Source: Syntrophus sp. (in: bacteria) (GTDB lineage Bacteria; Desulfobacterota; Syntrophia; Syntrophales; UBA8958). Taken from it: 43,932 bases of DNA. Numbering within the stretch: position 1 is the first letter of the stretch; each line of letters opens with the position of its first letter. The stretch covers positions 1 to 43,932 of the forward strand of contig DMAT01000275.1 in the NCBI GenBank assembly GCA_003451635.1, given 5' to 3'. The notes under the pieces were generated by a model. The model was not told the origin of the DNA, searched no databases, and was given only the letters and a program-made list of their open reading frames with translations. The translations under genes and the position numbers were made by a program. Positions 11,555-35,384 of the stretch are shown piece after piece.

Positions 11555-11618
11555 AATTGTTTATCCTCCTTTTCGATATATCATTCAAAAGTCGGGCGAC
11601 TTGTCGCCCGGCAAGGTG

Positions 11619-14890: not shown

Positions 14891-16018
14891 TTACTTGAAC
14901 AACGACAGTACACCCTGGGAAGCCATGTTGGCCTGGGCCAGCATGGAGGTGCCGGCCTGGACGAGAATCTGGTTCTTGGTAAAGGTTGTCATTTCCGCAG
15001 CCATATCGACATCGCGAATAACCGATTCAGAGGCCGAGAAGTTCTCGAGGGTAGAGGCCAGGTTGCCGGCCGCATAACCCAGGCGATTCTGATAGGCGCC
15101 GACATCGCCGCGAACACTGGCGAGTTTGTCGATAGCATCGTCGATATCGCTCATTTTCGCCAAGGCGCCGGCAGTGGTGCTGATATCATTGGCCGCGACG
15201 CCCGAACCGGTGTCTTTCAGTGCTGCCGTGTTGAGATCTCCCAGGCTGATGTTCAACTGGGAATTGGAATCCTCCTCATAACCGACCTGGAATTTTTTGG
15301 AAGTGGTACCGTTGTCCAGGATGGTCTGTGTACCGGCCACGCCGGCGCCGATATTAGCAGTAGTCGCTGCCGCCGTCGTCTTGAAGCTGATGTTAAATTT
15401 ATCAAAATTCATCGTGGTGCTGGCCGCGATGGTTTTGGTTTGGGACACGCCGCCGCTTGTCATCGTTAACGTGCCATCCGTTGCAGAGTAAGTGACTACG
15501 TAGGCAGCCGAGGCGGCATTCGCCACGTTGATGTCGTAGATATTACCCGCTGTATCGATGGTTGAATTGGCCGCATCTACGGTGCTGCCGCCTGTGAAGG
15601 AGCCATTTACGAGGGCAGTCCCGGCATATTTCGTCGAGTACGCGATCCTGTCGATTTCAAGGACGAGAGTGTTATACTCCGTGCTCAGTTTGGCAATGTC
15701 CGCACCGACATTGGCCGATGAGGCCTGGGTGGCCAGTTCCTTCATACGGGTAAGAATGTCGCCGACACTGCTCATGGCGCCTTCCGCCGTCTGCAGAAGC
15801 GAGTTGGCCTCGGAAATATTCCTCTGGGCAACCTTGACACTGGCGATATCCGCCCGGAAGGCCTGAGAAATAGCCAGACCAGCGGCGTCGTCCTTGGCGG
15901 AGTTGATCCGATAGCCTGAGGAGAGTCTTTCCAGTGACTTACTCATGCCGGCGTCGGAAATAGCCAAGTTTCTCTGTGCATTCATTGCCGCGATGTTGTT
16001 TTGAATTCTGAATCCCAT
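14891..16018 (-). CDS. fliC: Flagellin
   Basis: MGFRIQNNIAAMNAQRNLAISDAGMSKSLERLSSGYRINSAKDDAAGLAISQ and C-terminal RDVDMAAEMTTFTKNQILVQAGTSMLAQAN are canonical. The central domain is Ser/Thr/Ala-rich. Confidence 0.95.
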   Translation of the reverse strand: MGFRIQNNIAAMNAQRNLAISDAGMSKSLERLSSGYRINSAKDDAAGLAISQAFRADIASVKVAQRNISEANSLLQTAEGAMSSVGDILTRMKELATQASSANVGADIAKLSTEYNTLVLEIDRIAYSTKYAGTALVNGSFTGGSTVDAANSTIDTAGNIYDINVANAASAAYVVTYSATDGTLTMTSGGVSQTKTIAASTTMNFDKFNISFKTTAAATTANIGAGVAGTQTILDNGTTSKKFQVGYEEDSNSQLNISLGDLNTAALKDTGSGVAANDISTTAGALAKMSDIDDAIDKLASVRGDVGAYQNRLGYAAGNLASTLENFSASESVIRDVDMAAEMTTFTKNQILVQAGTSMLAQANMASQGVLSLFK

Positions 16019-19269: not shown

Positions 19270-19278
19270 TCACAGGAC

Positions 19279-20202
19279 TCATATTGTCAGCGACAGGGGA
19301 GTATGATTTATGTAGTTTATCCCGAGATGGTCGCATTCAATGCACAAAGGTTGACTTATTTTCTGCTGTTGGATTTCTTCCAGGGACATATTGAATATCT
19401 TTCCAAGGGAATAACTTTGTGAATTTCGGCCCACGCCGCAGCATAGCAAGACTTCGCAATTTTCGTTGATGCTGAGAAAATCATTTTGGGGGCAATCGTA
19501 ATGAAGAGGCTTGTTATTAAGGACATCACTGTAATAATAAGTAAGCAATTCGCTCGTTGCGTCTTTTAATGTTTCGTAGGGCATCTTGTTTGTCAGGTAG
19601 TCTCTGAACATGTTGTAATCATTAAAATAAGCGGCAGAATAAGAGATGGGTACGTTGAGTGATTCTGCAAATTGCTTTGCCAAAAACACCTCCCAGATGT
19701 TGAATTGATATAGGTGATACGCGATAAAGAATTTGTTTGTTAAAAAGCCGTTTTCTGAATAACGGTTAATGAGGTTGACCATATTCGATTTAATTTTTTC
19801 AAAGTTGAACCCGTGAATACGATCGTAAGATTGCTGGCTGAAACCGGACATGGAAATTATAGCTTGTGACAGGTTTTTGAGTTCCCGGGCATTCAGATAA
19901 ACCGGAAATGAAGCATTTGTACTGAAGGAATAACACAAATCATGATCAAGCAAAATTTCGATAATATCTTTGATTCGGGGATGCAATAAAGGCTCTCCCC
20001 ACTGGTAAAGTGAAATTAAAGTCTGATGTCCAATTATATGATTATCAAGTAAATACCGTATGGCCCGTTCAAAATCACTGATTCCGATAAAGCTTGCCTG
20101 TTTTCTGTGAAATCGTCCGGAAATGCTTTTCTTACCATTTGCACAGTATTTACAGTTTGCGTTACATATCCCGGAGATTTCGAAATAGAGTCTTTTATAC
20201 AT
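19279..20202 (-). CDS. Radical SAM protein with C-terminal SPASM/twitch-like Cys cluster
   Basis: CNANCKYC (CxxxCxxC) at the N-terminus. C-terminal CPQNDFLSINENCEVLLCC and CIEC motifs. Confidence 0.75.
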   Translation of the reverse strand: MYKRLYFEISGICNANCKYCANGKKSISGRFHRKQASFIGISDFERAIRYLLDNHIIGHQTLISLYQWGEPLLHPRIKDIIEILLDHDLCYSFSTNASFPVYLNARELKNLSQAIISMSGFSQQSYDRIHGFNFEKIKSNMVNLINRYSENGFLTNKFFIAYHLYQFNIWEVFLAKQFAESLNVPISYSAAYFNDYNMFRDYLTNKMPYETLKDATSELLTYYYSDVLNNKPLHYDCPQNDFLSINENCEVLLCCGVGRNSQSYSLGKIFNMSLEEIQQQKISQPLCIECDHLGINYINHTPLSLTI

Positions 20203-20254
20203 CCTTTATCCACCTGTCTTTGATAAATTCTTCACGATTATAAAATCAAGCCTT

Positions 20255-21166
20255 TCAGGAGGCCTCGTTCACGGTTTCCATTATGTTCATATCCGCCTTA
20301 TCCCTGTGCAATCGCTTCAAAGGAACATCGCACCGAGAACAACGCTCAAGATCATTTATTCGGCCCTTGTTCATAAGCGCACGCGCATCCCTGAATACGT
20401 CGCCGTTAAAGATGTCGACAGGATCCTCGTCAAAGGCGCTACCAAGTTTGTAAAAGGATGCATCAACGTCAATACAGCAAAACTGAATCTTCCCGGAGGC
20501 ATTGATAGTGATGCGGTCGAATATGTAAGGACAGGAAACGCTTTTGGGGATAATGCATTCCGCATCCGCCCAATTATGTCTGGGAAAACGCAGCACCATG
20601 TCCCCTCTTGTCAAAGTGAGATATTGAGACCAGTAATCTGTGTATTCCTGCCATTCATCTTCGTTCAATTCCTGTTCGATCATCCTGACACATATTGTCG
20701 TGGCATATTTTCCTTCGTTGCGAAGCCGTATGAACATCTGGATATTATCGATAACCCGCTGGAAGGACAATCCCTGCCTGATTTGCTCAAACCGATCTTT
20801 CCTCAGGCTATCGATACTGAATATGACGATGTCTATCCCCGTGTCCAAAAGCTTGGATGCACGCCGCTTATCGAGCATGCCGCCATTTGTGGGCAGGCTT
20901 ACTTGACGGAAGCCGGCATCTTTGGCTACCCCTATTTTCACAAAGACATTCGGGTCGAGGATGGCCTCACCCAAGCCCACGATGTTCAGATACTCAATGC
21001 TTTCTCTGTATGGAATCAGCTTGTTTACAATATTGACAAACATTTCCTGTGACATGAGTTGAGGACGTTGGGAGGACGAATGAATAGAGCACATTATGCA
21101 TGAGGCATTGCAGATCCCATGCACTGTTTCAATATCAATAATGGAAGGAGTAATCATATCATTCAT
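20255..21166 (-). CDS. Radical SAM / SPASM-domain protein
   Basis: CNASCIMC (CxxxCxxC). C-terminal CPYIFDRITINASGKIQFCC (Cx12Gx4C) and CSRC motifs. Confidence 0.8.
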   Translation of the reverse strand: MNDMITPSIIDIETVHGICNASCIMCSIHSSSQRPQLMSQEMFVNIVNKLIPYRESIEYLNIVGLGEAILDPNVFVKIGVAKDAGFRQVSLPTNGGMLDKRRASKLLDTGIDIVIFSIDSLRKDRFEQIRQGLSFQRVIDNIQMFIRLRNEGKYATTICVRMIEQELNEDEWQEYTDYWSQYLTLTRGDMVLRFPRHNWADAECIIPKSVSCPYIFDRITINASGKIQFCCIDVDASFYKLGSAFDEDPVDIFNGDVFRDARALMNKGRINDLERCSRCDVPLKRLHRDKADMNIMETVNEAS

Positions 21167-21212
21167 TGGAATATATTTTCCTGATCAACAGTGTTGCCTC
21201 ATAGTCAGGGCC

Positions 21213-21962
21213 TTATTTTATACATCGCAGGTAACCGCCCGGATTGCAGGTGAGTAGTAATTTTCTGTCATAGTAATTGTCGATGATGAAGCGGTCAGTC
21301 TCCTTCAAGAAAGACTCCAAGGCAGTTTTCGGGTTGTTTCCCGGCCCCCAGGGTCGCGGCCTGTGATCTTGGGGCGGAATATCTTCGACGATGGTATCAC
21401 CGCAGATCATGTAGTGCCCCTTGCCGACGAAGGCTGAGTAGAGGCGAAGTTCGGCAAGGACATGGTCGTGGCTGTGATAGGAATCGAGAATCACGAGAAC
21501 CTCACGGCAATCCTTAATGATGGACCGGATATGGGCAATGGTGTCAGATTCAACGGAAGAGCCGGCAATGAGATCGATTTTATTGGATAATTCACCATGA
21601 CTACTCAGCCTGGCCTTGAGGTCATCGGGGATGTATATGTCAACTCCGATGACTCTTTCCCCACCTAATACCGTAAGCAGAGTTGAGCAAAAAAGGAGCG
21701 ATCCACCCCATGCGACGCCGAGTTCAACGACATATTTTGGACGTGTATGGTAAATAATATCCTGGAGGGCAAACATGTCCTGTGGTAGATTCAGGATTGG
21801 TTCACCGAACCAGTTCGTCTGGTGAACCCAGTGATATTTGTCGGCGTCAATGACCAGATCTCTGGCCCTCTTAACAAGTCCCTCGTCCTGGCACATGGCC
21901 AGAGCTGATTCTGTGCGCAGATCCTCGAATTCTTCCCTGTTCAGCATCTTTTTTTCAGTCAT
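21213..21962 (-). CDS. CmcI/cephalosporin-hydroxylase-family SAM-dependent methyltransferase (sugar O-methyltransferase-like)
   Basis: W.HQTNWFGEPILNLPQDMFALQDIIYHTRPKYVVELGVAWGGSLLF...VILDSYHSHDHVLAELRLY is typical of the CmcI family. Confidence 0.7.
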   Translation of the reverse strand: MTEKKMLNREEFEDLRTESALAMCQDEGLVKRARDLVIDADKYHWVHQTNWFGEPILNLPQDMFALQDIIYHTRPKYVVELGVAWGGSLLFCSTLLTVLGGERVIGVDIYIPDDLKARLSSHGELSNKIDLIAGSSVESDTIAHIRSIIKDCREVLVILDSYHSHDHVLAELRLYSAFVGKGHYMICGDTIVEDIPPQDHRPRPWGPGNNPKTALESFLKETDRFIIDNYYDRKLLLTCNPGGYLRCIK

Positions 21963-22899
21963 GGTAACCTCCAGCGCCTTGCAGCAGGCCTATGGTTTCG
22001 GTTATGTTCTTCTCAATGGAACCGGTAAAGGCAAAACCAAGATCCCGGAAACGTCGGCTTGAGACGGTATATGACAATTGGTTCATGATTTCTGTATCCA
22101 CATAATCGATCGTGACTTCACCCACCTTTGGTCTGATCCAGGAGATGACGTCGTTGACAGTCAGGTTCTCCGTTACGACGTTGTAGACGCGACCATCGAA
22201 ACAGCGCTTGTCGAGAAGGAAAAAGAGGGCATTCATAGCATCGTTGATGGAAAGATAGGGACGTTTCTGGTGCAGGGCCGTCCGCCAGACCGTGAGGGGC
22301 TGTCCCAGAACGGCCTGCCAGCAAAATTTGTTGGCAGCCGTATGAAACCGCATCCCCGGCGAGATGCCAACAATCGTCCCGAAGCGGCAGGTCACGAAGC
22401 TCAGGCTATTTACCGCCGCCATATCTTTCAGGAGACGCTCTTCCCGAAGCTTGGTTTCCGCATAGGGACTCTGTGGCTTCAGCTCTCCCTCATCGCAATC
22501 CTCATCAACAATTGACTTCTGGGTGCCATAGACGCTGGTGGAGGATAAATGGATCATGGGGATTCCCAGGAGAACGCAACTGTCGGCTACTCTTTTAGTG
22601 GTGTTGTAATTCACATGTTCAATCTTTTCCCTGATCTGGAAGCTTCCCGCGGCGTCGGTAATAGCGGCGAGGTGGATGACCGCATCGACACCGGTCATGA
22701 TGGATGGCAGGTCAAGCTCAAGAACATCTCCTTCAATAAAGCGGTAAATGCACTCACCGGGAAGGTTAAACAATGAGGTGTATCGTTGGGTGCACAGGTT
22801 GTCGATCAAGACGAGTTCCGACGACGGAAAATGGTAGGGAAACTCCCTGATCAGCCTTGATCCGATATGTCCCAACGGGCCTGTGACAAGTATCTTCAT
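21955..22899 (-). CDS. NAD-dependent sugar epimerase/dehydratase/reductase (extended SDR)
   Basis: MKILVTGPLGHIGSRL Rossmann motif and YAETK (YxxxK) catalytic motif. Confidence 0.8.
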   Translation of the reverse strand: MKILVTGPLGHIGSRLIREFPYHFPSSELVLIDNLCTQRYTSLFNLPGECIYRFIEGDVLELDLPSIMTGVDAVIHLAAITDAAGSFQIREKIEHVNYNTTKRVADSCVLLGIPMIHLSSTSVYGTQKSIVDEDCDEGELKPQSPYAETKLREERLLKDMAAVNSLSFVTCRFGTIVGISPGMRFHTAANKFCWQAVLGQPLTVWRTALHQKRPYLSINDAMNALFFLLDKRCFDGRVYNVVTENLTVNDVISWIRPKVGEVTIDYVDTEIMNQLSYTVSSRRFRDLGFAFTGSIEKNITETIGLLQGAGGYHD

Positions 22900-22903
22900 G
22901 ATA

Positions 22904-23914
22904 TCACCTTAGGTATTTTTCCAGACAGGTCTCATAATACCCTTTTGTCATCAAAAGTCCGGTTTTCAGATCGGTCATAGGCTTCCAGTTGACAAGGGAT
23001 TTTATCTTCTTGTTGCTGATAACGGCGTCGCCGATCTCCAAAGGTTTTCTGTCTTTCGGCCACTCGACTAATTTGACTTTGCCTGCTCCGATATGCCTTA
23101 TTGTGGCCTTGGCGATGTCCGCGACACTGAAATGTTCGTCGCCGACGGCGAAGATTGTCTCGTTATTTGTCTTTTCAGTCTGAGACGACATAATTAAGGC
23201 GGCAACCACGTCATCGACAAAAATGGAGTTTCTTTTCTGTGCACCGTCGCCGAAAACAGTTATTGTCTTGTTCTGAAGTGCGAGGCCAATGAAGTAGTTG
23301 TTAAAAGTGAAATCGCTGCTGTGGATGCTCGCCCGGGGGCCGAATGTGTTGGAGATCCTTATGACGGTTGCCCTCAAGCCATAGATATTCGCATAGATCA
23401 GGACATATTTCTCAGCAACGGTTTTGTTTGCGGAGTAGATATCAGTCGGGAATTCAGGGTGATTCTCATCGGCGGGTTGATAGTGGAGCTTTCCCAACTG
23501 GGTGCTGGTTCCCAGATGGATAAATTTCGCCTCCCGGTTGAAACGTCGGATGGCCTCCAGTTGGTTGATGACGGCACGGCTGTTCACGTCAAGGTTCATC
23601 CAGGGTTCACGGATGGAAAAGGGATGAGAGGTGGAGGCGGCGCAGTTGAAGATAATATCCTTTTCAAAAATTTGCTCAGACAGCCGATCCATGTTTAAGA
23701 TGTCATAGTGACAAAGTTGGACATAGTCTCTGATGTCGTGGATATTAAATAGATTTCCTCCTGAGCTGGGGTCCATGCAGTCATAAATGGTGACCTCGGC
23801 GCCTAGCTCCAGGCACTTGTGGGTGAGATTGCTGCCGATGAATCCGAGACCGCCGGTAATAAGAACCCTCTGGCCGCGCAAGGATGGAAGTTTAATGCTA
23901 TGGTATTTATTCAT
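22904..23914 (-). CDS. NAD-dependent sugar epimerase/dehydratase (extended SDR)
   Basis: VLITGGLGFIGSNL Rossmann motif and YSANK (YxxxK). Confidence 0.8.
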   Translation of the reverse strand: MNKYHSIKLPSLRGQRVLITGGLGFIGSNLTHKCLELGAEVTIYDCMDPSSGGNLFNIHDIRDYVQLCHYDILNMDRLSEQIFEKDIIFNCAASTSHPFSIREPWMNLDVNSRAVINQLEAIRRFNREAKFIHLGTSTQLGKLHYQPADENHPEFPTDIYSANKTVAEKYVLIYANIYGLRATVIRISNTFGPRASIHSSDFTFNNYFIGLALQNKTITVFGDGAQKRNSIFVDDVVAALIMSSQTEKTNNETIFAVGDEHFSVADIAKATIRHIGAGKVKLVEWPKDRKPLEIGDAVISNKKIKSLVNWKPMTDLKTGLLMTKGYYETCLEKYLR

Positions 23915-23925
23915 TTATTCCTCAC

Positions 23926-25065
23926 TTATTTCTTAAAGATTCGTCGGACTCCCTCGCAAACCCGATCGATCTGTGATTCCGTCATAATCAAGGCGCCGGG
24001 AAGATTGATCCCACGGTCGCAGATGTCATAGGCTGTGAGGTTTCGCGGACTATATATTGCCTCTTTACCAGGGTAGGCGGGAAGGGATGACAACGGGTAG
24101 AAAAATGGCCGGGTGGGCAGTCCAAGTTCCTGTAGCCTTTCCATTGCCTTTATCTTGTCCATATTGTAGCTTTTGCCGATAAGGAGTCCGGTGATCCAGA
24201 CGCTGTTGAATCCTCCTTCCGGTTCGGCATTGAGTTGAATATCCTCTATATCCGAGAGCCGCTCCTTGTAGCTTTCAAATATCCAGCGCTTTTTTGCGAT
24301 TAGTTCATCAATTCGCTGGAACTGGGCATATCCCATGGCCGCCTGGAGGTTGAAGGGCATGTATTTGTAAGTCACCTCGTAATTAAAATAGGCCGGGCCG
24401 TCGGGCCGACGCCCGTGATCCCTCAGGAAGCGACAGCGCTCATGGAGTTTATCGTCGTCAAGAATCAGCATGCCACCTTCGCCTGTCACCACGGTTTTCG
24501 TGCGGTGAAAACTGTACACGCTGGCAATACCGAAGTTCCCCGCCCTTTTCCCTTTGTATTTGGATCCAAGGGCCTCAGCCGCGTCTTCAATCATAGGGAT
24601 GCCGTAGTGGTCCGTAATAGCCATGAGTTCGTCCATAAGGGGCATATTGCCGAAAAGATCGACGGGAATTACAGCCTTTGTCTTCGGGGTGATATTCCTC
24701 TCCAGAGACTGTGGATCCATGCACCAATGAACCGGATCGATATCACAAAAAATGGGGATGGCCCGCAGATAAGAGACCGGTGCGGCTGTGGCAATCCAGG
24801 TGCACTCGGGAACAATGACTTCGTCGCCGTCTTCGATACCCAGAGCAGTCAGAAGCAGATGAATCGCCGTCGTGCAATTTGGCGTCATGATACCGTAACG
24901 TCGATTGTGATAGGCGGCGAATTCCCTCTCAAAGGTTTCTACGTACCCGTAATTGTACCACCCGTTTCGCATGCAATCCTCAACAACGCGAATTTCATGC
25001 TCTGTAATCCACGGTCCGGACATAAAAATAGGTTCTGTTGGCATTTTTTCTTTTCTCTCGGCCAT
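23926..25065 (-). CDS. DegT/DnrJ/EryC1/StrS-family PLP sugar aminotransferase
   Basis: DegT-family architecture (..VIVPECTWIATAAPV...IPVDLFGN...IEDAAEALGSKYKGK..G.FG.ASVYSFHRTKTVVTGEGGM). Start set at MAERK (GAGGG SD). The longest ORF starts at 25095. Confidence 0.8.
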   Translation of the reverse strand: MAERKEKMPTEPIFMSGPWITEHEIRVVEDCMRNGWYNYGYVETFEREFAAYHNRRYGIMTPNCTTAIHLLLTALGIEDGDEVIVPECTWIATAAPVSYLRAIPIFCDIDPVHWCMDPQSLERNITPKTKAVIPVDLFGNMPLMDELMAITDHYGIPMIEDAAEALGSKYKGKRAGNFGIASVYSFHRTKTVVTGEGGMLILDDDKLHERCRFLRDHGRRPDGPAYFNYEVTYKYMPFNLQAAMGYAQFQRIDELIAKKRWIFESYKERLSDIEDIQLNAEPEGGFNSVWITGLLIGKSYNMDKIKAMERLQELGLPTRPFFYPLSSLPAYPGKEAIYSPRNLTAYDICDRGINLPGALIMTESQIDRVCEGVRRIFKK

Positions 25066-25070
25066 TCTTT

Positions 25071-25865
25071 TTAGTTTACCCTCTGCCAGATCCACATCTT
25101 CGGCGCTCCCATATTTCCCATATCCTGGGGTAAGCGATACGCCAAGAGGTTAATCTCCGAGTCATATCTCATATCTTCCGGTTTTAAGCCCTGATCTGTG
25201 GCGATCTTTGCGTAGATTACCCTGCTTAAGAAATAATAGGTTGAGGCCATCGGCCTGGGTTCTTCCACCAGTCTGAATTCTTCTGTCTCCCAAGTCGCAA
25301 TTACTTCTTCGTCAAGAAAAAGATTATGCCAGGGGACGGGAATAGGATCGAGATCCACTCTGCTTCTCAAGTCGTTCAAGGAGTCAAGGCCCTGGCGCGA
25401 GTCTTCGATCATGAGGTAGTAACCACCAGGTAACACTTGTGACATGATTTCGGTAAAGGCCTGCAATTGATCCTTTGCAGTAGTAAGATTCACAAGGCAA
25501 CGTTGACTCAGGGCGTAATTGAATAGCCCCGTATCACACAGTCCGCCGGGAATCTGAGCCGCTTTGAACAGCACTTCTTCCCCCAAACCGGCGTCATTCT
25601 TCTGCTTATTGGCCAAATTAATGGTTTCAACAGAGAAATCGACGCCAGTCCCAGTGCATCCCCTTTTTTGGGCCAAAGTGATGAGGGTCTTACCGTTTCC
25701 ACAACCGACATCCAGGACGCTGGAGTTAGGTTTTATCCTGTCAAGGATGGCCGCTGTTTCCAGATCCTTAAGAATAAAATCATTTGAACCCGATGTGTGG
25801 CCGAGGCGCGCCCGGGAATCCCAGAATGCCCTGATGCTGTCCTGCGAATCGCTCATGTTCCCCAT
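25071..25865 (-). CDS. Class I SAM-dependent methyltransferase
   Basis: Motif I VLDVGCGNGKTL. Embedded in the sugar-modification operon. Confidence 0.75.
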   Translation of the reverse strand: MGNMSDSQDSIRAFWDSRARLGHTSGSNDFILKDLETAAILDRIKPNSSVLDVGCGNGKTLITLAQKRGCTGTGVDFSVETINLANKQKNDAGLGEEVLFKAAQIPGGLCDTGLFNYALSQRCLVNLTTAKDQLQAFTEIMSQVLPGGYYLMIEDSRQGLDSLNDLRSRVDLDPIPVPWHNLFLDEEVIATWETEEFRLVEEPRPMASTYYFLSRVIYAKIATDQGLKPEDMRYDSEINLLAYRLPQDMGNMGAPKMWIWQRVN

Positions 25866-25898
25866 CCTTTTACCTACCCTTCATCGGCTTATCGCCTA

Positions 25899-26357
25899 TT
25901 ATTGAATGTCCGGACCTTTGAGCCAGTCGTATCCGATGGCCGGGTCATCATGAGGAATTCTCCCCTCTTCATCTGGGTTATAGATTTGTGATGTGATATA
26001 TAGGAGATGGGCCGGGCCTTGGATGCACTTACAGCCATGAGCCACCCCCGGCGGTATCATAACAGCTGTTGCCGGTTGATGGTCACCCATGAAAAATGCC
26101 ATGGTCTTCCCGTAAGTCGGAGACCCTTTTCTTGCGTCATGCAATGCCGTCTTCAAGACACCGCAGACTATATACCACCAGTCTATCTGGGTCTTGTGGA
26201 TATGCCAAGCCTTGGTAACGCCTGCATACATCAGAGAATGGCTCCATTGACCGAACCCGGCGGCAAAAAAATCATCGGTATGGCGAATTATTTCCCGGAA
26301 GAAACCCCGCTCGTCGGTGTGAGTGACCAATTTCTTGAAGATGACGCCTTCAATCAT
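25899..26357 (-). CDS. RmlC-like cupin (NDP-4-keto-6-deoxyhexose 3,5-epimerase family)
   Basis: [53 protein letters not shown] and [20 protein letters not shown] follow the RmlC pattern. Confidence 0.7.
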
Positions 26358-27462
26358 TGTATCTCTCCCAAAATTCCCGGATTGACGCCACTATCGAGTG
26401 AAGCTCTGTCTCCTCCAGTTCCGGATATATGGGCAGTGAGAGGATCTCGGCAGCCACTTTTTCTGTCTCTTCCATGCCGTCTCCGCAACGAAGACGGCAA
26501 TGGTAGGCTGGTTGCAAATGGATCGGAACAGGATAATGGATAAGGGCCCCGATGCCATGTTCCGCAAGAAAGGACCGCAGAGCGTCTCTTCTTGGCGTTC
26601 TTGCAACATAGAGATGAAAAACGTGACTTCCCTGGGGATGGGTTTTCGGCAGCACCAGGTTCATATCAGCGAGGAGCCGGCTGTATTGATCGGCGATTTT
26701 TTTACGGCGGATATTATCATCATCCAGGGTTGGGAGCTTTACCCGCAAAATAGCCGCCTGGATCTCGTCGAGGCGCGAGTTCCCCCCTGGAATGGAACTG
26801 ATATATCGTTCGGCCCATCCGTATTCCCTGAGCAGTCGGCAGCGCCCGGCAAGATCCTTATCGCTTGTCGTCACCATGCCCCCGTCTCCACAGGCGCCAA
26901 GGTTCTTAGTCGGGTAAAAGCTGAAACAGGCTATATCTCCCCAAGTGCCGACGGGTCTTCCCCGGTAAGTCGCCCCGTGGGCCTGGGCGCAATCTTCTAT
27001 GACGCGGAGTCCCCGGGGGCGGGCGATATCCAGGATGGCCGCCAGGTCTGCGGGCTGTCCGTAAAGATGCACGGGGATAACTGCCTTGGTTCGGGGCCCG
27101 ATGGCGGATAACAGTTTGAGCGGAGCCATCGTGAAATAGTCCGGCTCGATATCCACCAGGACGGGGACGGCCCCGGCCGCTTCGATGGCCGCCACCGTGG
27201 CCACGGCCGTATGGGATACGGTAATTACTTCATCACCCGCACCAATGCCGCAGGCTTTTAAGGCCATCTGGATTGCCTCCGTACCGCTTCCCACACCGAT
27301 ACCGTGGGTGCAGCCGATGTATGCGGCAAATTCACTTTCAAAAGCGGCAACCTCTTTCCCCAGGATATACCAGCCTCTTTCCATGACATTCCTGACGGCG
27401 ACGTCGATGGCTTCTTTGCGTGCGTGATACGAGGCGAGGGGATTACTGGCTGGTATCATCAC
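26350..27462 (-). CDS. DegT/DnrJ/EryC1/StrS-family PLP sugar aminotransferase (second copy)
   Basis: [48 protein letters not shown]...[10 protein letters not shown]...[11 protein letters not shown]...[10 protein letters not shown]....[25 protein letters not shown]. Confidence 0.85.
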
Positions 27463-28676
27463 GGGATGTGAACCTCAGGCACATAAAGTATCCATTTGCC
27501 GCCGGCGGCTGTGAATGCTTGCTCCTTGGCCATAATCTCTTCAGCATGATTCCAGCCGAAGAGAACTGCATAATCGGGATAACGGGCCTTAAACTCCTCG
27601 TAAGGACGGATGGGGATATGAACTCCAGGACTGTATTTCCCCTGTTTGATCGGGGTGGTGTCGCTGATATATTCCAGAAGATCCGGCGTGATGCCACAGA
27701 AGTTCGTTACAGTTGTGCTCTTTGACGTCGCGGCGTAGGCGGCAACCCGTTTCCCTTGCCGTTTCAGGTCTTTTAAAAGGGCGATGAGGTCTTGCCGGGA
27801 TTTCTCCACATGACTGCGAAAAATTTTGTAGGTTTCCCTATGATCCAACTTTTGCGTCCTTTCCCTTTCGTCCAACTTCCGGACGGCCGCGGAGACTGGA
27901 TAGGCGCTACGGTGGGAAATGACATACCGCATCGATCCGCCATGGACGTTCTGCGGCTGAACATCGACAACGTCCATGTCATATTGAGAAAATAGATAAC
28001 GTACGGATGCAAGAGAGAAATAGAAAGCATGCTCGTCGTATATCTGATCATAAGATGTCTTCTCGATGATATCTCCCAGATAGGGATCTTCAAAAATAAC
28101 AAATCCTTCCGGTTTCATAAGGATCTTGATCCCAGCGATGACGGAGTGAAGGTAAGGGATGTGACACATTACATTAGCCCCGAGAAACACATCGGCCTGA
28201 CCATGAAGATCCACGATTTCCCTGGCTAGTGTTTCATCAAAGAAACGGCAGATCGTCTGTACGCCATTTTCTCTGGCGACGGCGGCTACATTCGCCGATG
28301 GCTCGATGCCAAGATGCCGAATGCCCGCCTTGGCGAAGTGTTGAAGCATGATCCCGTCATTACTGCCGACTTCCACGACAAAGGGGTCGTTTTTCCCCAG
28401 GTATCTTTCTCGCGCGAGTAGAGCGAGGGACTCAAAGTGATCGGCCATCCGTGCCGAGGTAGAGGAAAAGAAGGCGTAATTTTCATGGAACATCCGCTCA
28501 CGGTCAACCAGTTCGGTGAGTTGTACCATCTTGCAGCCATCACAGAAACCAACGTTGAGTTCAAAAAAATATTCTTCAGAAAACTGCTCAGCCGTAAGAA
28601 AACCATTCGCGATCGGCATCCTGCCGAAGGATATGAAGGGGCTTATGTTCTTATTGCAGACGAGACATTGTGTCAT
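27459..28676 (-). CDS. NDP-hexose C-methyltransferase-like enzyme (Zn-ribbon + class I SAM MTase + C-methyltransferase C-terminal domain)
   Basis: N-terminal [24 protein letters not shown]...CDGC Zn-binding motif, then VVEVGSNDG MTase motif. The architecture resembles TylCIII-type sugar C3-methyltransferases. ATG 28676 overlaps the upstream stop (ATGA). Confidence 0.7.
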
Positions 28677-31000
28677 GATTTGGCCTCCTGCCGGTATTTC
28701 ATATCTTTTATGACAACTCGGGACATTCTTTCGGCATCGGCTATACATTTTTTGTAAGTGTCATGGAGATGCCCATTATCGGGGAATAAAAAAATGGCTT
28801 CCCTGATACGTTTTAGAACATCAGTAATGTTAAAATATTCCAGATACTTAGATTCTTTGCGTATACCGTCATCATAAGACCGACTGTCCCATGTAAAATA
28901 ATAGACGTCTTTTTTGACAAGCTGCATAAGGCGCTCAATTTCATTATCTAATTGTTGCTTCCATCGTATCCTGAAACAATGAACAATTTCATTAGTCAAT
29001 GCCTCTTTTCGTTCTGGAGCGATTATCGAATGATTTATCAATTCGCAGTGTGCATATGTAAATCTGCAGAAAGGAAGGGAAAGTCCCTCTTCAAGGGTCA
29101 CGGGATCATTCGAGTAGAGGATTTCGGCATAATGTTGAGCCATGGTTACATCATATTTCCTTGTAAGTATCCGGATGAATAGGGCATCATCAATTTGGAT
29201 GATCTTGCCTAACAAAGCTATTTCGGCAAGAAAGAGATTGTCGTGGGCATAGGCATTCTTTACGCGCATCGAGCGCGTTTTCCGCACGTAGCGATTCCTG
29301 AAGAGTCCATAGATGGCATTACACATCTGCAATTCCCGGATAACATGGACAAATCTTTCACAGGGATCATCCTGATCCGCCTTCACCGAGTCGTTTCCTA
29401 TGCCTAAGTATTCGTAATCTTTGTTAAATACTTTAGATCGCGGATAAACCAAAGCTATGGATTCCTCCTTGTCCCTCTCCATCCACTCCATACACTTGCT
29501 GATGCAAGACTTTTCCAACCGGTCATCGTAGGAAGCCCACATAAAAAACGGAGACGGCGCCAGTTCAATCATGCGTTGAAAAATATGACAGCCAAGGTAA
29601 TCAATTCTATCATCTGTCGGTAGGTATTTCACTCGACGATCCATCTTCTGGTAATTAGTGCATACTTCCCGGACAAAGGGATCGGATCCATGATCGGATA
29701 CCATCAATTCGATATCTGTGTAATCCTGGGATAGGATGGACTCGATTGCATCGGCCAGCATGGCGCCGCCGCTGTAAAGAGGCAGGCCAATTGTAACGAC
29801 AGGCCGTTTCTTAATGTGGCCTTTCTGCTGCGTTGACCTTTGCCGTGCATTTCCAGTCTTATCGTTCACGTATCCGTATTTTAATGCATATTTCCAGCAT
29901 GATTGTTCAATGGTCTGTCTGAACTCGTGCGACCACTCGCTCACCGCAGGGAAGCGGCCATAATTATTGGCATTCCTTTTAACTTTGATTACCTCCGAAA
30001 CGCGGGAGGAAGAAAAACCCTTTAAATTAAGAAAATCAAACAACTTACGGATGGTCCGGACGTTGCCAAAGAGATCTTCAAAGTGAAGAACCATAAACCT
30101 GTCTTGATCAAGGTTTTCCGTTACCTTTTCAATGAGGTTATTGAACTCATTCCATAGCCAGCAGATTTTATCTGCCTGGCTCTTCTTCTTCCATTGGATA
30201 TAAGTATCGGTATCCTTTGATGGAGTAAATCGATATGTATCATCTCCATGACCGTGATAAAAGTTTTGGAAAAGGGCAGAGCGGGTAAAGGTAAGAGGAT
30301 CACGCACAAGAATGACGAATTTGGCTTTAGGAATTGTCTCTGCTAAGACATCAGAAAAGGCGGTAATGGCCGGCGATGTTTCTCCAAAGACAAAGCCATC
30401 TTTTGATGTTTGCTGAATAAGGGGATAATGATAATTGGATAAAAATTCCTTCTTATCGATCCTGTTCCAGAATGCCTCCAAAGACCCCTGTCCCACCTCT
30501 GGCCGGGACGTGTGGAATGACCTGACGTTTTCTGCGGTGTTTATTACTTCATTCAAGGTTTTGCTGCCGCAGCGACCGGAAGAAAGAACGAAGAAAGATT
30601 CTGCATTAAGAACTTCTGATGGCACGGTCCGATTCTTCCCTTGGCAGATCTGTTTTTTGATATCCTCCAGAAATAATCCAAGTTCATGATCCTGGGTAAC
30701 CTTTGCCATTGCCATTTCCATGTACGGAATAAACTGAGACGCCTCGCCTTGTTTATTTAACAAATCGTATAAATTCATCAGTCCATCTTTATGTACAGGA
30801 TCAATAGACAGGATTTTTTTGAAAATATCTTGGGCAAGATCATTCTGTCCCTCATAAAACAGAATAACGGCAAGGTTGTTGAGACCCTCCAAGTGATAAG
30901 GATTAATTGTTATGATAGACAAGAAACAACCCTTCGCTTCTTGCAAATTGCCTTCAATGTAAAGCTTCTTACCGCTTATGATTAAATCTTCGATATTCAT
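28673..31000 (-). CDS. Three-domain protein: N-terminal TPR, central sulfotransferase-like domain, C-terminal GT2 glycosyltransferase
   Basis: TPR (YIEGNLQEAKGCFLSIITINPYHLEGLNNLAVILFYEGQNDLAQDIFKKILSIDP). Sulfotransferase-like 5'-PSB loop FFVLSSGRCGSKT and 3'-PB motif FVILVRDPLTFTRSA. GT2 motifs VVTIGLPLYSGGAMLADAIESILSQDYTDIELMVSDHGSD and a YDD motif. Confidence 0.65.
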   Translation of the reverse strand: MNIEDLIISGKKLYIEGNLQEAKGCFLSIITINPYHLEGLNNLAVILFYEGQNDLAQDIFKKILSIDPVHKDGLMNLYDLLNKQGEASQFIPYMEMAMAKVTQDHELGLFLEDIKKQICQGKNRTVPSEVLNAESFFVLSSGRCGSKTLNEVINTAENVRSFHTSRPEVGQGSLEAFWNRIDKKEFLSNYHYPLIQQTSKDGFVFGETSPAITAFSDVLAETIPKAKFVILVRDPLTFTRSALFQNFYHGHGDDTYRFTPSKDTDTYIQWKKKSQADKICWLWNEFNNLIEKVTENLDQDRFMVLHFEDLFGNVRTIRKLFDFLNLKGFSSSRVSEVIKVKRNANNYGRFPAVSEWSHEFRQTIEQSCWKYALKYGYVNDKTGNARQRSTQQKGHIKKRPVVTIGLPLYSGGAMLADAIESILSQDYTDIELMVSDHGSDPFVREVCTNYQKMDRRVKYLPTDDRIDYLGCHIFQRMIELAPSPFFMWASYDDRLEKSCISKCMEWMERDKEESIALVYPRSKVFNKDYEYLGIGNDSVKADQDDPCERFVHVIRELQMCNAIYGLFRNRYVRKTRSMRVKNAYAHDNLFLAEIALLGKIIQIDDALFIRILTRKYDVTMAQHYAEILYSNDPVTLEEGLSLPFCRFTYAHCELINHSIIAPERKEALTNEIVHCFRIRWKQQLDNEIERLMQLVKKDVYYFTWDSRSYDDGIRKESKYLEYFNITDVLKRIREAIFLFPDNGHLHDTYKKCIADAERMSRVVIKDMKYRQEAKS

Positions 31001-31020
31001 ATCAACTCTCGTTGACCAAG

Positions 31021-32613
31021 CTATGCAGAAATCAGACCAGCGGGAGTTTTCTTGAAGCTCTTTTTACATGCCGGACACCGGAATAATTTTGCAAGCTTTT
31101 CGCCGCAGATGCAGGCCCAGCCAATTTGTTTGGCCGGATTGCCGACCATCAGGGCGTGATCGAGAACATCTTTAGTAATCACAGCCCCAGCGCCAACGAA
31201 TGCATAGTTACCGATGGTATGGCCGCAGACGATGGTGCAGTTTGCTCCCAAGGTCGCGCCTTTTTTGACGAGGGTAGGGCGTACCTGGTCCATCTTGGAG
31301 AATTTGGCGCGGGGGTTATGGATATTTGTAAAGACCATGGAGGGTCCGCAGAAGACGCCGTCTTCCAAGGTGACGCCTTTGTAAACACTGACGTTGTTCT
31401 GGATCTTGCAGCCATCGCCGATATTGACATCAGGTCCGATGACGACATTCTGACCGATGTTGCATTGCTCACCGATGGTGGTTCCGGACAAAACGTGGGA
31501 GAAGTGCCAGATATTAGCTCCCTTGCCGATACGAACACCGTCATCGATAATTGCCGTCTCGTGAACAAAGGCGTCTTTGGGTGGCGAGAATTTGACGGTT
31601 TTAGGTGTTGACCCGACGGAAATGGGGACGTCCTTTTCCTTCATGGATTTCTGACTCAACTCCAAAACATGAAGGACCCGCAGGCCTTCCTCGCCGGAGG
31701 TGAAGGGTTGCTGTCCGGTTGTAATCGCTCCGATAAAAGCCCGGCATTCCGCCTTCAATGGTTCTTCCCATTGATCGGAAAGACTGACGGCGATGGCCGC
31801 GGCCTTTTCCGCAATGGGCAGCCCGTCTTTCCAATTGATGATATGTGGATATAGAACAAGTTTTTCATCGACATCTTGGGTATCGTCAAAGACCAGCATT
31901 CCCTGGCTTCCCACGACGACAAGACGCTGCTCCTTATAAGGATTCAGCCAGCTCACGAAGATGTGAGCGCCGATTCCCGAGGGAAACTTGAGGTTCGTCA
32001 TAGTGACGTCGGCGATGGAGGCATGGAGAAAATTACTGCCCACGGCGTCCACATAAGAGGGATCTTCACCGACGATGCTGAGGATCAGGGATATGTCATG
32101 GGGGGCAAAGGACCATAGGATGTTCTCTTCCCGTCGTATTTTGCCAAGACTGAGGCGGCGGGAATAGATATACTGAAGACGGCCGATCTTTCCATCAGCA
32201 ATCATCTTCTTCAGTCTGACGACCCCCTGGTGATAATGAAGAATATGACCGACGAAAAGTATTTTCCCGGCAACACGGGCCTTGGCGACTAATTGGCGGC
32301 CCTCGTCATAGGTGACGGCCAGGGGCTTCTCGACGAAAACGTGTTTTCCGGCTTCAAGGGCCTGGGCAGCAAGAGCGAAATGGGTAACCGCCGGCGTGGC
32401 GATGACCACCGCCGTGATGGATGGATCATTAAGCGCGCCGTCAAGCTGACCGATGCAGGGAACATCGGGGTAATCTTTGCGCATTTGGACTTGTATTTGA
32501 CCGTCCCCATCGCAAATGGTTTTTAAAACTCCTAATTGATGGAAATTCCGTACAAGGTTTTTCCCCCAGTAACCGGCGCCGATTACGGAAATCTTTATAT
32601 TGCTTTTTTTCAT
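31021..32613 (-). CDS. Fusion of Gfo/Idh/MocA oxidoreductase (WbpB-like) and left-handed beta-helix acyl/acetyltransferase (WbpD-like), with a C-terminal Cys4 ribbon
   Basis: N-terminus [13 protein letters not shown]...VVIATP...H......[15 protein letters not shown]-terminal half carries hexapeptide repeats [64 protein letters not shown]. Tail [18 protein letters not shown]. Confidence 0.75.
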
Positions 32614-32702
32614 ATGGTGTTTTTTATCCTCCTTTATATAGGTTACCCATTATCAGAAAAGAAGATATGTGGCAATTCAATCTGATATCATATGTTTGCT
32701 AG

Positions 32703-34598
32703 TTATTGACCATATTTTGAGTTTATCGATTGAATATGTTTTTTTGCGAGTATGCTGCCCGGATCGATGGAAATCGCTTTATGAAAATAATGAAGTGCCT
32801 GTGAGGAATCACCCAGGTGCAGGCTTATTTCGCCCAGGGTGATCAGGGCGGGAATAATATCACCGCTATTTGCTATTTCCATTTTTAAGCAGTCAATTGC
32901 ATTATTATATTTGCCGAATTTCAAAAATATAATTGCCTTCTGAATGTTTACTTTTTTAAATGCCGGCGCGAGTTGCAGGGTCTTGTCGAAATGCTCCAAT
33001 GCCTCGGCATGGTTTCCAAGGACGCTGTGGACAAGCCCGAAGGTATAGCGAATTGCCGGATGATTTATGATTGTGTCGGATGCGGTTTGCAGGATTCTCA
33101 GGGCCTCATGATCTTCATTTCGCCGCAGCAGGATACCGACCAGATTGTTGTATGCCCCTACATGAGAATTAGTCCGCTTGATGGTTTCACGGTAGGCATC
33201 TTCTGCCTCAGTCATTCTGCCCGCCTTTTCCAGGGCCATGGCTTTCAAAAAGAATGACTCCGAATTATCCGAAGAAATGCGCAGGCCTGTAGAGGTAACT
33301 TCCATCGCCGTTTGCGGTTCAAGTCCCAGCGATTGACTTTTGCTATTACCGGCAACATCGTGGGCAGGTTGTTCGTGCGATGCTGCGGCGACACTCTGCG
33401 CCTCGATCGAAGGAGGGGAGAGACGGTGTGCCTCTTCCATATATAAGCGGGCGCGATCGGGGTGGCCGGCCTCAGAGAGACTGATTCCTGCCTGGCGGCA
33501 GAGGAATGCCTTGTCGGGCGCGATTTCAAGGGCCCGGGCGTAAAGAATTTCCGCACCTTCCGGATCTCCCAAGCCTAGCTTCGCCATCCCCATCCAGCAG
33601 CAGATCTTCCATTCCTCGCTGTAGGTGGCAATCTCCACCATGTCCAGGCCGATTTCATGGTTCCGGTAGCGTTCGAGGGCTTCCCGGTACCTGTTTCCGG
33701 ACTCGATTATTCCGGACCAGTCCTTTTTCATAAGGCTGATCAACGTCTGGCTGGCGAAAATATCGATGTGACCTCCATAGCGGTCCAGGGCCTGCCGGCA
33801 GATTATTTCGGCCTCATCATTGCGTTGCAGTTGAATGTATGAGCGGGCGGCCGTGTAGTAGGCCTTCAAATACTGTTTGTGGGTGATCTGCTGCGCCTCT
33901 ACCAGTTCAATTGTGGTCAGGGACTCCCGGAGCGCCTCCTCGTTCTTGTTCATCGACGCGAAAGAGTTGCTGAGATAGAGATGGGCCAGGGCGTTTTCGG
34001 GATTCTCTACGATCTGTTTTTGCAGGAGTGTCGCCGTACGTTCGAACTTCTTCCGGGCCGCTTCGGGTCCCTGGTCGTAACCGTAGTGGATGATGCGTCC
34101 CAGTGAGGCCGCGTGGTTTTTGAAACCCAGGAGATAGTTGTGGACGATACCCTCATAGCGGATTCGTCCGTTCGATCGAAAGATCCTGATCGAGTCAAGG
34201 CAGACGGTTTCTTTCCCCTCATTGCAACTGTTTTCCACCTGCAAGGACAGCGCCTCGATCCCCTGCTTTTCGGCTAGAGCGACTTCCTCACGCAGGCTTC
34301 GCTGTGAAGAAGGCCGATATTGCTCGTCGGCGTCGATGATGAAGATCCAGCGCCCCTTGGCGTAGGAGATGGACTGGTTACGGTGGAGGCTGAAATCGTC
34401 CTGCCAGGGGTGGTGATAGATGCGGGATCTGAAGCTTTTTGCGATCTCTACGGTACGATCAGTCGAACCGGTGTCGACGATGATGATCTCGTCAACGTGG
34501 TCAACGACACTTTTTAGGCAGCTCCCGATGAAGGCTTCTTCATTCTTGACGATCATGCAGACAGAGAGGGTAGGTGGCTTACCTTTTTTCAATTTCAA
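32703..34598 (-). CDS. GT2 glycosyltransferase-TPR protein (third copy of the module in 16420-19269)
   Basis: LSVCMIVKNEEAFIGSCLKSVVDHVDEIIIVDTGSTDRTVEIAKSFRSRIYHHPWQDDFSLHRNQSISYAKGRWIFIIDADEQY followed by a long TPR region. Confidence 0.8.
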   Translation of the reverse strand: MKLKKGKPPTLSVCMIVKNEEAFIGSCLKSVVDHVDEIIIVDTGSTDRTVEIAKSFRSRIYHHPWQDDFSLHRNQSISYAKGRWIFIIDADEQYRPSSQRSLREEVALAEKQGIEALSLQVENSCNEGKETVCLDSIRIFRSNGRIRYEGIVHNYLLGFKNHAASLGRIIHYGYDQGPEAARKKFERTATLLQKQIVENPENALAHLYLSNSFASMNKNEEALRESLTTIELVEAQQITHKQYLKAYYTAARSYIQLQRNDEAEIICRQALDRYGGHIDIFASQTLISLMKKDWSGIIESGNRYREALERYRNHEIGLDMVEIATYSEEWKICCWMGMAKLGLGDPEGAEILYARALEIAPDKAFLCRQAGISLSEAGHPDRARLYMEEAHRLSPPSIEAQSVAAASHEQPAHDVAGNSKSQSLGLEPQTAMEVTSTGLRISSDNSESFFLKAMALEKAGRMTEAEDAYRETIKRTNSHVGAYNNLVGILLRRNEDHEALRILQTASDTIINHPAIRYTFGLVHSVLGNHAEALEHFDKTLQLAPAFKKVNIQKAIIFLKFGKYNNAIDCLKMEIANSGDIIPALITLGEISLHLGDSSQALHYFHKAISIDPGSILAKKHIQSINSKYGQ

Positions 34599-34634
34599 TT
34601 TTCCATTTACTAGACTGTATGTATTGTCGCTATG

Positions 34635-35384
34635 CTATTCTGCAGCGTTCTGTTTCCGAACGTAGGACAGCAGGGCCTTCCCCTCCGCAAATTCCGGATT
34701 GATATCCAGCCCCTGTAATATCGCCTCTTCAGCATCCTGCCATTCTTTCCTTTCAAGGTAGGCCCGGGCGATGTTGTAATACAATCCCTCATCCTCAGGA
34801 TGAAAGACAAGGGCTTTACGAAACTCGGCAATGGCGTCGTTGATATTTCCCGCTTTTCGATATGCAATGCCCTTGGTGTTGCAAAGCTGCAAAATCAGAT
34901 AATTCATTTCCGTATCTTCGCCAAGAATTGCCTTGGCTTTTGCGAAAGCGCCGTTATCGATAAATTCCTTGGCCTTTTGGACCAGCATTTCATGTGCAGA
35001 TTCGCTTGCGTCATTGTTTACGGTAGCATCGTCAATATCTTGACGTATCGATTCCTCCAATTGCGATGAAATCTCTTCTTCTTCAACCTGTAGGATTTGC
35101 TTTAAAAAATCCAGGGCGGTTTTAGCATCGTTATCACGAAAAGTTACAGGACCATACATCTCTTTAAAGGCCTTCGAGGCGGCCAGGTCTTGCTGAAAAA
35201 CGTTGATGTCGTTATTTAATTGCTTCTGATCGGCAGGGAGCATTTTGGTATGCATTGTTTTTTCCAAAACCTCTTTAAAACAATGAAGGCAGGAATAGAC
35301 ATTTTGCCGTTTTAGGTGCCGCTTTGCCTCGTCCAGCTTTTTTTGGATGACAGCGGCGTCTTCCCTTTTCAGTGGTTCTGCCAT
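34635..35384 (-). CDS. TPR-repeat protein, first gene of the minus-strand island
   Basis: C-terminal TPR motifs (GIAYRKAGNINDAIAEFRKALVFHPEDEGLYYNIARAYLERKEWQDAEEAILQGLDINPE). Function unknown. Confidence 0.6.
   Translation of the reverse strand: MAEPLKREDAAVIQKKLDEAKRHLKRQNVYSCLHCFKEVLEKTMHTKMLPADQKQLNNDINVFQQDLAASKAFKEMYGPVTFRDNDAKTALDFLKQILQVEEEEISSQLEESIRQDIDDATVNNDASESAHEMLVQKAKEFIDNGAFAKAKAILGEDTEMNYLILQLCNTKGIAYRKAGNINDAIAEFRKALVFHPEDEGLYYNIARAYLERKEWQDAEEAILQGLDINPEFAEGKALLSYVRKQNAAE

Follow-up and report, generated by a model that had tools for sequence, protein, structure and literature searches.

The 43,932-nucleotide stretch of contig DMAT01000275.1 from Syntrophus sp. (assembly GCA_003451635.1; the whole stretch is referred to as the window) encodes a 775-residue protein (28673..31000, minus strand) in which a tetratricopeptide repeat (TPR)-like module, a sulfotransferase domain and a family 2 glycosyltransferase (GT2) domain are fused on a single chain. 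The gene is part of a glycosylation operon situated directly upstream of the flagellin gene and on the same strand. By profile, predicted fold and motif alignment the central domain is a sulfotransferase of the type that uses 3′-phosphoadenosine 5′-phosphosulfate (PAPS), with catalysis predicted. There is about an even chance that the protein is a soluble, cytoplasmic tailoring enzyme directed at flagellin, with both function and acceptor predicted, that adds a sugar and also sulfates the glycan. With somewhat less confidence, we tentatively propose that flagellin in the Syntrophales and Desulfobacterales carries an O-linked glycan with a sulfate ester, installed by one TPR-docked polypeptide that both glycosylates and sulfates; the analysis thus predicts a sulfated flagellar glycan but does not prove it. 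The identities and folds of the domains, the conservation of motifs, the structure of the operon and its conserved synteny were all obtained directly and are described below.

The open reading frame starts with an ATG codon that has a GAGAG ribosome-binding site ~7 nt to its 5′ side, and the position of this start codon is common to the homologues. A preliminary description of this DNA, made from the letters alone, had placed the gene at exactly these coordinates and had divided its product into TPR, sulfotransferase-like and GT2 domains, a division with which both the profile matches and the predicted structures agree. The motifs that were quoted are all found in the protein: SSGRCGSKT (aa 140–148), VRDPLTFTRS (aa 232–241), LPLYSGG, SDHGSD and SYDD. 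From the N-terminus, the chain consists of a TPR-like module (aa 1–119; 30644..31000), the sulfotransferase domain (aa 128–374; 29879..30619), a flexible interdomain linker (aa 380–397; 29810..29863), the GT2 domain with a GT-A fold (aa 398–611, or 402–611 in the AlphaFold2 model; 29168..29809) and a conserved C-terminal region (aa 616–775; 28676..29155) that AlphaFold2 predicts to be helical from aa 620; all of these are on the minus strand. The full-length AlphaFold2 model has a predicted local distance difference test score (pLDDT) of 79, falling below 50 in the linker, and in the homologue alignment these ~18 linker residues are weakly conserved and vary in length.

A search of 5.8 billion proteins identified 67 relatives. 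Approximately 27 are full-length TPR-sulfotransferase-GT2 proteins, 41–74% identical to the query, and those with named sources come from Syntrophales or Syntrophus metagenome-assembled genomes (MAGs), which makes membership of the Syntrophales most likely for the organism of the window too. About ten more are longer forms of 1100–1260 aa with the same sulfotransferase-GT2 core, from Desulfobacterales and others. In all, ~40 homologues, the majority of them from Syntrophales and Desulfobacterales, retain the fusion; GCA_035685925.1 and GCA_013375395.1 are examples of MAGs with the gene. Relatives are also encoded in 17 further metagenome loci, several of which are ended by a contig edge. The fusion is real and not an assembly artefact, because at least 27 full-length homologues from independent assemblies keep the same architecture. 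Family members are present in public databases under the automatic names 'sulfotransferase', 'TPR protein' and 'glycosyltransferase', and the family is therefore uncharacterised rather than unseen.

The assignment of the central domain rests on several kinds of comparison. Two Pfam models, the families against which the preliminary description had suggested it be searched, match above their gathering cut-offs: Sulfotransfer_3 (PF13469) at aa 161–327 (39.7 bits; cut-off 27) and Sulfotransfer_1 (PF00685) at aa 136–338 (33.2 bits; cut-off 22). An AlphaFold2 model of the domain by itself, built on 64 sequences, has a pLDDT of 91.2 and a predicted TM-score of 0.88, and all 50 of its top 50 Foldseek matches in the PDB are PAPS sulfotransferases, with TM-scores of 0.5–0.6. 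TPST1 is the top match (E = 2.5e-8), and the enzymes matched include TPST2, the sulfotransferase (ST) domains of CurM and OLS, 3-OSTs, NDST1, Stf1 and Stf9, and cytosolic SULTs. Run through phmmer as a single sequence, the central domain gave nothing significant among PDB sequences, only a weak match of the 3′-phosphate-binding (3′-PB) motif to SgdX2, and a profile of 18 family members run against the same sequences returned sulfotransferases only (CurM ST, 4.5e-7; OLS ST, 2e-5; TPST1, 2e-5). The preliminary description had considered that the domain might turn out to be a P-loop fold other than a sulfotransferase; neither the profile matches nor the top 50 Foldseek matches of the AlphaFold2 model include anything but sulfotransferases, and no kinase or NTPase family or fold is among the Pfam, Foldseek or profile matches.

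Both cofactor-binding motifs are recognizable in the profile alignments. The 5′-phosphosulfate-binding (5′-PSB) loop SSGRCGSKT (aa 140–148; 30557..30583) aligns with LSSPRSGST of CurM and RSGTT of TPST1, and in the alignments FFVLSSGRCGSKTL is set against 'IFILSSPRSGSTLL' of CurM and 'RSGTTLM' of TPST1. The 3′-PB motif, KFVILVRDPLTFTRS (aa 227–241; 30278..30322), aligns with 'KYIYLVRHPYSVIES' of CurM and 'KFLLMVRDGRASVHS' of TPST1. Conservation within the domain was counted over 64 relatives with identities down to ~30%, and that of the full-length family over 27 members. In the 5′-PSB loop, S140 and G142 are each present in 63 of the 64, G145 in 62 and T148 in 59; the R-x-P-x5-S pattern of the 3′-PB motif is also strongly kept (R233, 64/64; P235, 63/64; S241, 63/64). 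Outside the motifs, W356 is conserved in 63/64, E207 in 61/64 and K227 in 59/64, with Arg in the remaining five. The near-invariance of R233, S241, E207, T148 and W356 down to ~30% identity implies that the cofactor site is under purifying selection.

R143 and T148 in the 5′-PSB loop, together with R233 and S241 in the 3′-PB motif, are the residues that align functionally. The proposal that SSGRCGSKT is a 5′-PSB loop is thus upheld by its alignment with CurM and TPST1, but the lysine of 'GSKT' is not a Walker A lysine, since K147 is Lys in just 9 of the 64 relatives. A reading of 'GSKT' as the Walker A motif of a P-loop NTPase or kinase is ruled out by the same count, and the spacing here (G142-xx-G145-x-K147-T148) departs from the GxxxxGK[ST] pattern.

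The sulfotransferase subfamily extends well outside the TPR-GT2 context, with 525 representative clusters at E <= 1e-10 among 1.84 billion. Elsewhere it is fused to GSCFA domains, to hexapeptide acyltransferase domains, or to GT1 together with FkbM-methyltransferase domains, which points to a wider set of modular enzymes, putatively glycan-tailoring, built around it. Four such fusions (P0040, P0051, P0062 and P0066) are 1000–1350 aa long and have a ~400-aa unannotated region N-terminal to the sulfotransferase domain.

Several observations weigh against the reading of the protein as a sulfating, flagellin-directed enzyme; some concern the sulfotransferase domain and its cofactor, and others, described with the related loci below, concern the link to flagellin. 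R143, which aligns with the catalytic Arg/Lys of the 5′-PSB loop, is Arg in 49 of the 64 relatives (Asn in 10), and among the 27 full-length members it is Arg in 14, Asn in 9, Leu in 2, Cys in 1 and Gln in 1. Because this residue varies, either it is dispensable in this family or some members are inactive. The position of the catalytic Glu of TPST and CurM corresponds to T164 in the query; the adjacent H163 (His in 54/64) and E207, at a position resembling His108 of SULT, are candidate general bases. The sulfotransferase domain also evolves faster than its partner, with 33–50% identity across loci vs 57–64% for the GT2 domain, and none of the PAPS synthesis genes cysC, cysDN and sat is present within the window. 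Finally, the family is biochemically uncharacterised, such that enzyme activity, cofactor binding and glycan product are all predictions.

Some of these features also favor the possibility that the sulfotransferase domain is catalytically dead or purely regulatory, for example as a scaffold or a domain binding nucleotide or 3′-phosphoadenosine 5′-phosphate, and the protein a plain GT2 flagellin glycosyltransferase: the inconstant R143, a general base without a firm assignment, the lower conservation relative to GT2 and the question of PAPS supply. This is nonetheless distinctly unlikely. R233, S241, T148, E207, K227 and W356 remain near-invariant in distant relatives, unlike the residues of a decaying active site, the query itself has kept R143, and the domain turns up repeatedly as a separate module in fusions of many kinds.

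An active sulfotransferase could instead act directly on the flagellin polypeptide in the manner of TPST, sulfating Tyr, Ser or Thr residues of a substrate presented by the TPR module. TPST1 and TPST2 are the top structural matches, TPST1 is also among the profile matches, and the window's flagellin has 10 Tyr residues, four of them in its exposed central region. However, the catalytic Glu of TPST is replaced by T164, and the TM-scores of 0.5–0.6 are alike for the carbohydrate sulfotransferases 3-OST and NDST and for CurM ST, so that the fold is blind to the substrate. A carbohydrate acceptor is suggested by the fusion to a glycosyltransferase here and by fusions of the relatives to further sugar-tailoring domains, and direct sulfation of the polypeptide is therefore very unlikely. 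Most improbable of all is a transient sulfation resembling that of CurM and OLS, in which the sulfate would activate a hydroxyl as a leaving group for elimination or substitution during sugar biosynthesis and the mature glycan would be free of sulfate. CurM ST and OLS ST are the best sequence-profile matches, and the sugar made by the island is predicted to be heavily rearranged, with radical SAM enzymes encoded within the island; but generic cofactor motifs and a shared helix account for the two matches, there is no thioesterase-like or other known elimination partner, and we know of no precedent for activating sulfation in pathways of nucleoside diphosphate (NDP)-sugars. Sulfation of a glycan that is retained in the product is thus the favored reading of the sulfotransferase domain.

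The GT2 domain is the most conserved part of the protein. Glycos_transf_2 (PF00535) matches at aa 404–529 (39.5 bits; cut-off 23.3), and phmmer finds the GT-A domain of K4 chondroitin polymerase (K4CP; 1.4e-8) as well as SpsA. Foldseek with the full-length model similarly identifies SpsA, TarP, TarS and K4CP. The putative DxD-type motif for metal and nucleotide-sugar binding, S490-Y491-D492-D493 (29522..29533), aligns with DSDD of K4CP in the phmmer alignment. D440, D492, D493, H586 and D587 are invariant (27/27), and D436 is Asp in 24 and Asn in 3 of the 27, with the second Asp of the usual 'DDGS' being His437 here. Residues 398–611 are thus assigned as a GT2 domain with a GT-A fold, and glycosyl transfer is predicted. 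The C-terminal region has no Pfam match, but its residues H623, C645, H651, C652 and C675, together with C560 in the GT2 domain, are invariant in all 27 members, and these six residues may form a metal-binding site.

The N-terminal module is TPR-like. Several TPR models (TPR_1/2/8) score ~23 bits at aa 38–68, just below the single-repeat cut-offs of 26–28. In the AlphaFold2 model, aa 3–119 form seven paired antiparallel helices running from H3–15 through H105–119 with a pLDDT of ~90, corresponding to ~3.5 repeats, and precomputed annotations show that homologues carry TPR Pfam matches.

The gene lies within a 16-gene, ~19 kb glycosylation operon (16420..35384, minus strand) delineated from Pfam and NCBIfam matches and from gene spacing, with neighboring genes either overlapping or separated by gaps of no more than 89 nt. 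In transcriptional order it begins with a small TPR protein, a GT2-TPR protein (631 aa), a fusion of GFO/IDH/MocA and hexapeptide acyltransferase domains, and the TPR-sulfotransferase-GT2 gene. These are followed by an NDP-hexose C-methyltransferase, a DegT aminotransferase, an RmlC-like cupin, a methyltransferase and a second DegT protein, and the last part encodes two dehydratase/epimerases of the short-chain dehydrogenase/reductase (SDR) type, a CmcI-like methyltransferase, two radical SAM enzymes and a 949-aa double GT2-TPR protein. No island neighbor reaches an NCBIfam equivalog cut-off, and the sugar is therefore not named by NCBIfam.

The C-methyltransferase gene (27459..28676, minus strand; Methyltransf_13/14) is the constant partner of the fusion gene. 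The two overlap at an ATGA (28673..28676) that contains the TGA stop codon of the TPR-sulfotransferase-GT2 gene and the ATG of the C-methyltransferase, and a GGAGG Shine-Dalgarno sequence for the latter sits within the 3′ end of the former, implying that the two genes are translationally coupled.

Convincing transmembrane segments are absent from all 16 island proteins, and Pfam identifies no flippase (Wzx), polymerase (Wzy), oligosaccharyltransferase or lipid-carrier gene among them. This is the pattern of cytoplasmic O-glycosylation of flagellin rather than of a lipid-linked polysaccharide pathway. The presumed acceptor, a flagellin of 375 aa (14891..16018, minus strand) with Flagellin_N and Flagellin_C domains, has a central region that is 27% Ser+Thr, and downstream of it are fliD (coding for a 1032-aa product) and fliS (11099..14717, minus strand). 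The operon adjoins these genes within a 35-kb flagellar region. The plus strand of the window carries fliK-C, flgF, flgG, flgA, flgH, flgI, the rod-binding FlgJ-N, flgM, flgN, flgK, flgL, csrA and fliW, and the minus strand carries flaG, a 151-aa open reading frame, fliS, fliD and flagellin. The flagellin context that had been proposed for the protein is borne out by these genes and by synteny.

Gene order is well conserved in the related loci. The C-methyltransferase is the immediate downstream neighbor in every locus that extends that far, and is followed by DegT and usually by the RmlC-like gene; in loci with enough sequence, a CmcI-like gene and a GT2-TPR gene are located farther on. On the upstream side a small TPR protein is encoded, along with a che operon or, alternatively, the SLT and response regulator-GAF-HD genes that are present in the window. 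In a Syntrophales MAG encoding a copy with 49% identity (L007), the order is TPR-sulfotransferase-GT2, sugar genes, GT2-TPR, flagellin and fliD, and in a Desulfobacterales MAG with a 1251-aa form (L013) a flagellin gene and a GT2-TPR gene lie ~9 kb away.

Direct adjacency to flagellin is seen in three loci only (the window, L007 and L013), and at the L014 locus no gene within 10 kb is flagellar; these are the points bearing on the link to flagellin. Most of the other loci have a 10-kb flank that reaches no farther than the GT2-TPR gene, ~3 kb short of the position that flagellin occupies in the window. The acceptor could accordingly be something other than flagellin, such as a nucleotide-sugar intermediate, FliD or another exported flagellar protein, or a further surface glycoconjugate that is encoded next to the flagellar cluster by chance. 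In addition to L014, this is favored by the identity of the most constant neighbors, which are sugar genes (the C-methyltransferase, DegT and the RmlC-like cupin) and not flagellin, and by the 1032-aa FliD, which is likewise adjacent. It is nevertheless unlikely: the island adjoins a flagellin gene in three independent loci, the lipid-carrier, flippase and polymerase genes needed for a cell-surface polysaccharide are lacking from it, and fusions of TPR and glycosyltransferase domains typify the enzymes that glycosylate flagellin, FlmG among them. Flagellin thus remains the preferred acceptor.

Three related islands (L010, L011 and L012) keep the sugar genes and have no sulfotransferase in the sequence examined, such that the sulfotransferase behaves as an optional tailoring module. 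In two of these a stand-alone GT2 gene (L010, 10820–11431; L012, 531–1130) directly follows the CmcI-like gene, and its product is 24–25% identical to the GT2 domain of the fusion. The sulfotransferase-GT2 fusion, and with it the sulfotransferase, look like an optional add-on to the sugar islands.

Among the closest characterised systems is FlmG of Caulobacter crescentus, in which an N-terminal TPR domain is necessary and sufficient for binding flagellin (PMC7591256). The likeness is at the level of domain types: FlmG is soluble and cytoplasmic, as the present protein is predicted to be, and both have a C-terminal glycosyltransferase, follow an N-terminal TPR domain (FlmG) or TPR-like module (here), and are encoded with flagellar and sugar genes. 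However, FlmG has a GT-B catalytic domain and transfers pseudaminic acid, whereas here the catalytic domain is GT-A/GT2, a sulfotransferase is placed between it and the TPR module, and the sugar pathway is not of the nonulosonic acid type. GmaR of Listeria monocytogenes and other GT2-TPR proteins are cytoplasmic flagellin glycosyltransferases with an N-terminal GT2 domain, C-terminal TPRs and no sulfotransferase. The combination of GT2 and TPR is shared with these, and two proteins of this kind, of 631 aa and 949 aa, are encoded in the window, but in the TPR-sulfotransferase-GT2 protein the domain order is reversed and the GT2 domain is divergent (39.5 bits vs 84–173 bits for its neighbors). 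By analogy the protein would belong functionally with the cytoplasmic TPR-glycosyltransferases of flagellin glycosylation (of the FlmG and GmaR type), the embedded sulfotransferase being the new part.

The solved Sulfotransfer_3-type enzymes, including CurM ST (4gbm), OLS ST (4gox), TPST1/2 (5wri, 3ap1) and Stf1/Stf9, share the fold and the 5′-PSB and 3′-PB motifs with the central domain, but differ from it in sequence (11–17% identity, at TM-scores of 0.5–0.6) and in the Glu position of TPST and CurM that is not conserved here. Their acceptors are peptide Tyr, the beta-hydroxyl of an acyl chain on acyl carrier protein, and glycolipid. NodH, Stf0 and LpsS are stand-alone PAPS-dependent sulfotransferases that act on lipo-chitooligosaccharide, trehalose and lipopolysaccharide, respectively. 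Likened by description, these have in common with the present protein the PAPS-dependent sulfation of a bacterial glycoconjugate, but they have no glycosyltransferase fusion and no flagellar link.

Flagellin glycans affect filament assembly, surface charge, recognition by phages and predators, and detection by the immune system. In bacteria they are known to contain, among other things, nonulosonic acids, sugars with methyl or acetamidino groups, and peptidyl groups of the phospho- and sulfonated kinds; to our knowledge, sulfate esters are not part of this chemistry. Literature searches that included reviews, with subscription journals outside their coverage, found no report of sulfate esters on bacterial flagellin glycans, only archaeal cases. 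The preliminary description had regarded sulfation of flagellar glycans as not established, which holds for bacterial flagellin but not for archaellins: those of Halobacterium salinarum carry a sulfated N-linked tetrasaccharide, and the sulfotransferases Agl30 and Agl31 (VNG1056C/VNG1057C) were identified in 2025 (PMC11980604). As compared by description, Agl30 and Agl31 also sulfate the sugars of a motility-filament glycan (and of the S-layer), but they are archaeal, separate, single-function enzymes, their N-linked glycan is built on a lipid carrier, and the filament is non-homologous.

That no described enzyme was known to couple the three domains also stands in part. The literature searched contained no paper describing a sulfotransferase-glycosyltransferase fusion of this kind, although the family was already in databases under its automatic names. 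TPR proteins that have sulfotransferase domains and are encoded beside flagellar clusters receive a brief mention in one preprint, which leaves them out of its analysis, and an Alteromonas paper deals with sulfotransferases of O-chains, not of flagellin.

In the mechanism that we propose, both activities, the acceptor, the reaction order and the role of the TPR module are inferred. The enzymes of the island would build at least one NDP-activated 6-deoxyhexose that is aminated, C- and O-methylated, and acetylated. The N-terminal TPR module would dock the enzyme on flagellin, or on an assembly of flagellin with its glycosyltransferase, prior to export. The GT-A domain, predicted to be inverting and using the D492–D493 metal site and the invariant H586–D587, would then add one sugar, probably a C-methylated amino sugar made by the products of the downstream genes that are coupled to it in translation. 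Tethered by the ~18-residue linker, the sulfotransferase domain could take sulfate from PAPS and place it on the same glycan, at either a hydroxyl or an amino group, with R143 and T148 holding the 5′-phosphosulfate, R233 and S241 holding the 3′-phosphate, and either H163 or E207 serving as base. The resulting flagellar glycan would be sulfated and carry a negative charge.

If this is true, it would be the first sulfated glycan on a bacterial flagellin, and the enzyme the first characterised glycosyltransferase-sulfotransferase fusion in bacterial protein glycosylation. Confirmation would add a new bacterial post-glycosylation modification, in syntrophic anaerobes, that parallels the sulfated glycans of haloarchaeal archaella, and a compact 'glycosylate-and-sulfate' enzyme with a built-in protein-targeting module that would be of interest for glycoengineering. 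The prediction can be tested directly, as the gene, the residues and the expected mass shift (+79.957 Da for SO3) are all named.

Several other genes of the island and its surroundings have unusual features. The 949-aa protein (16420–19269, minus strand), encoded directly upstream of the flagellin gene, has two GT2 domains with TPR repeats after each; it is kept in four related loci (L003, L008, L020 and L022) and is probably the primary flagellin glycosyltransferase. Between it and the CmcI-like methyltransferase gene are the two radical SAM genes (19279–21166, minus strand), one of which has a SPASM domain and is conserved at 72–80% identity in relatives. The GFO/IDH/MocA fusion protein (530 aa; 31021–32613, minus strand) combines a domain like sugar 3-dehydrogenases with a hexapeptide N-acetyltransferase and ends in a CxxC...CxxC tail; it looks like a WbpB/WbpD-type pair of steps on one chain, and its gene is missing from the corresponding position in many related loci.

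On the flagellar side, FliD (the filament cap; 11619–14717, minus strand) is much longer than the usual 420–700 aa at 1032 aa, and its extension is conserved, because the L007 homologue aligns over ~930 residues with 47% identity. The 151-aa open reading frame between flaG and fliS (10656–11111, minus strand) has no Pfam match, and its position suggests a FliT-like or other flagellar chaperone. The island is flanked by rightward genes for a response regulator-GAF-HD(-GYP-like) protein and an SLT lytic transglycosylase (35832–38183, plus strand), which are syntenic with it in many metagenome loci (L005, L020–L022 and L026–L028), suggesting a conserved regulatory or motility neighborhood.

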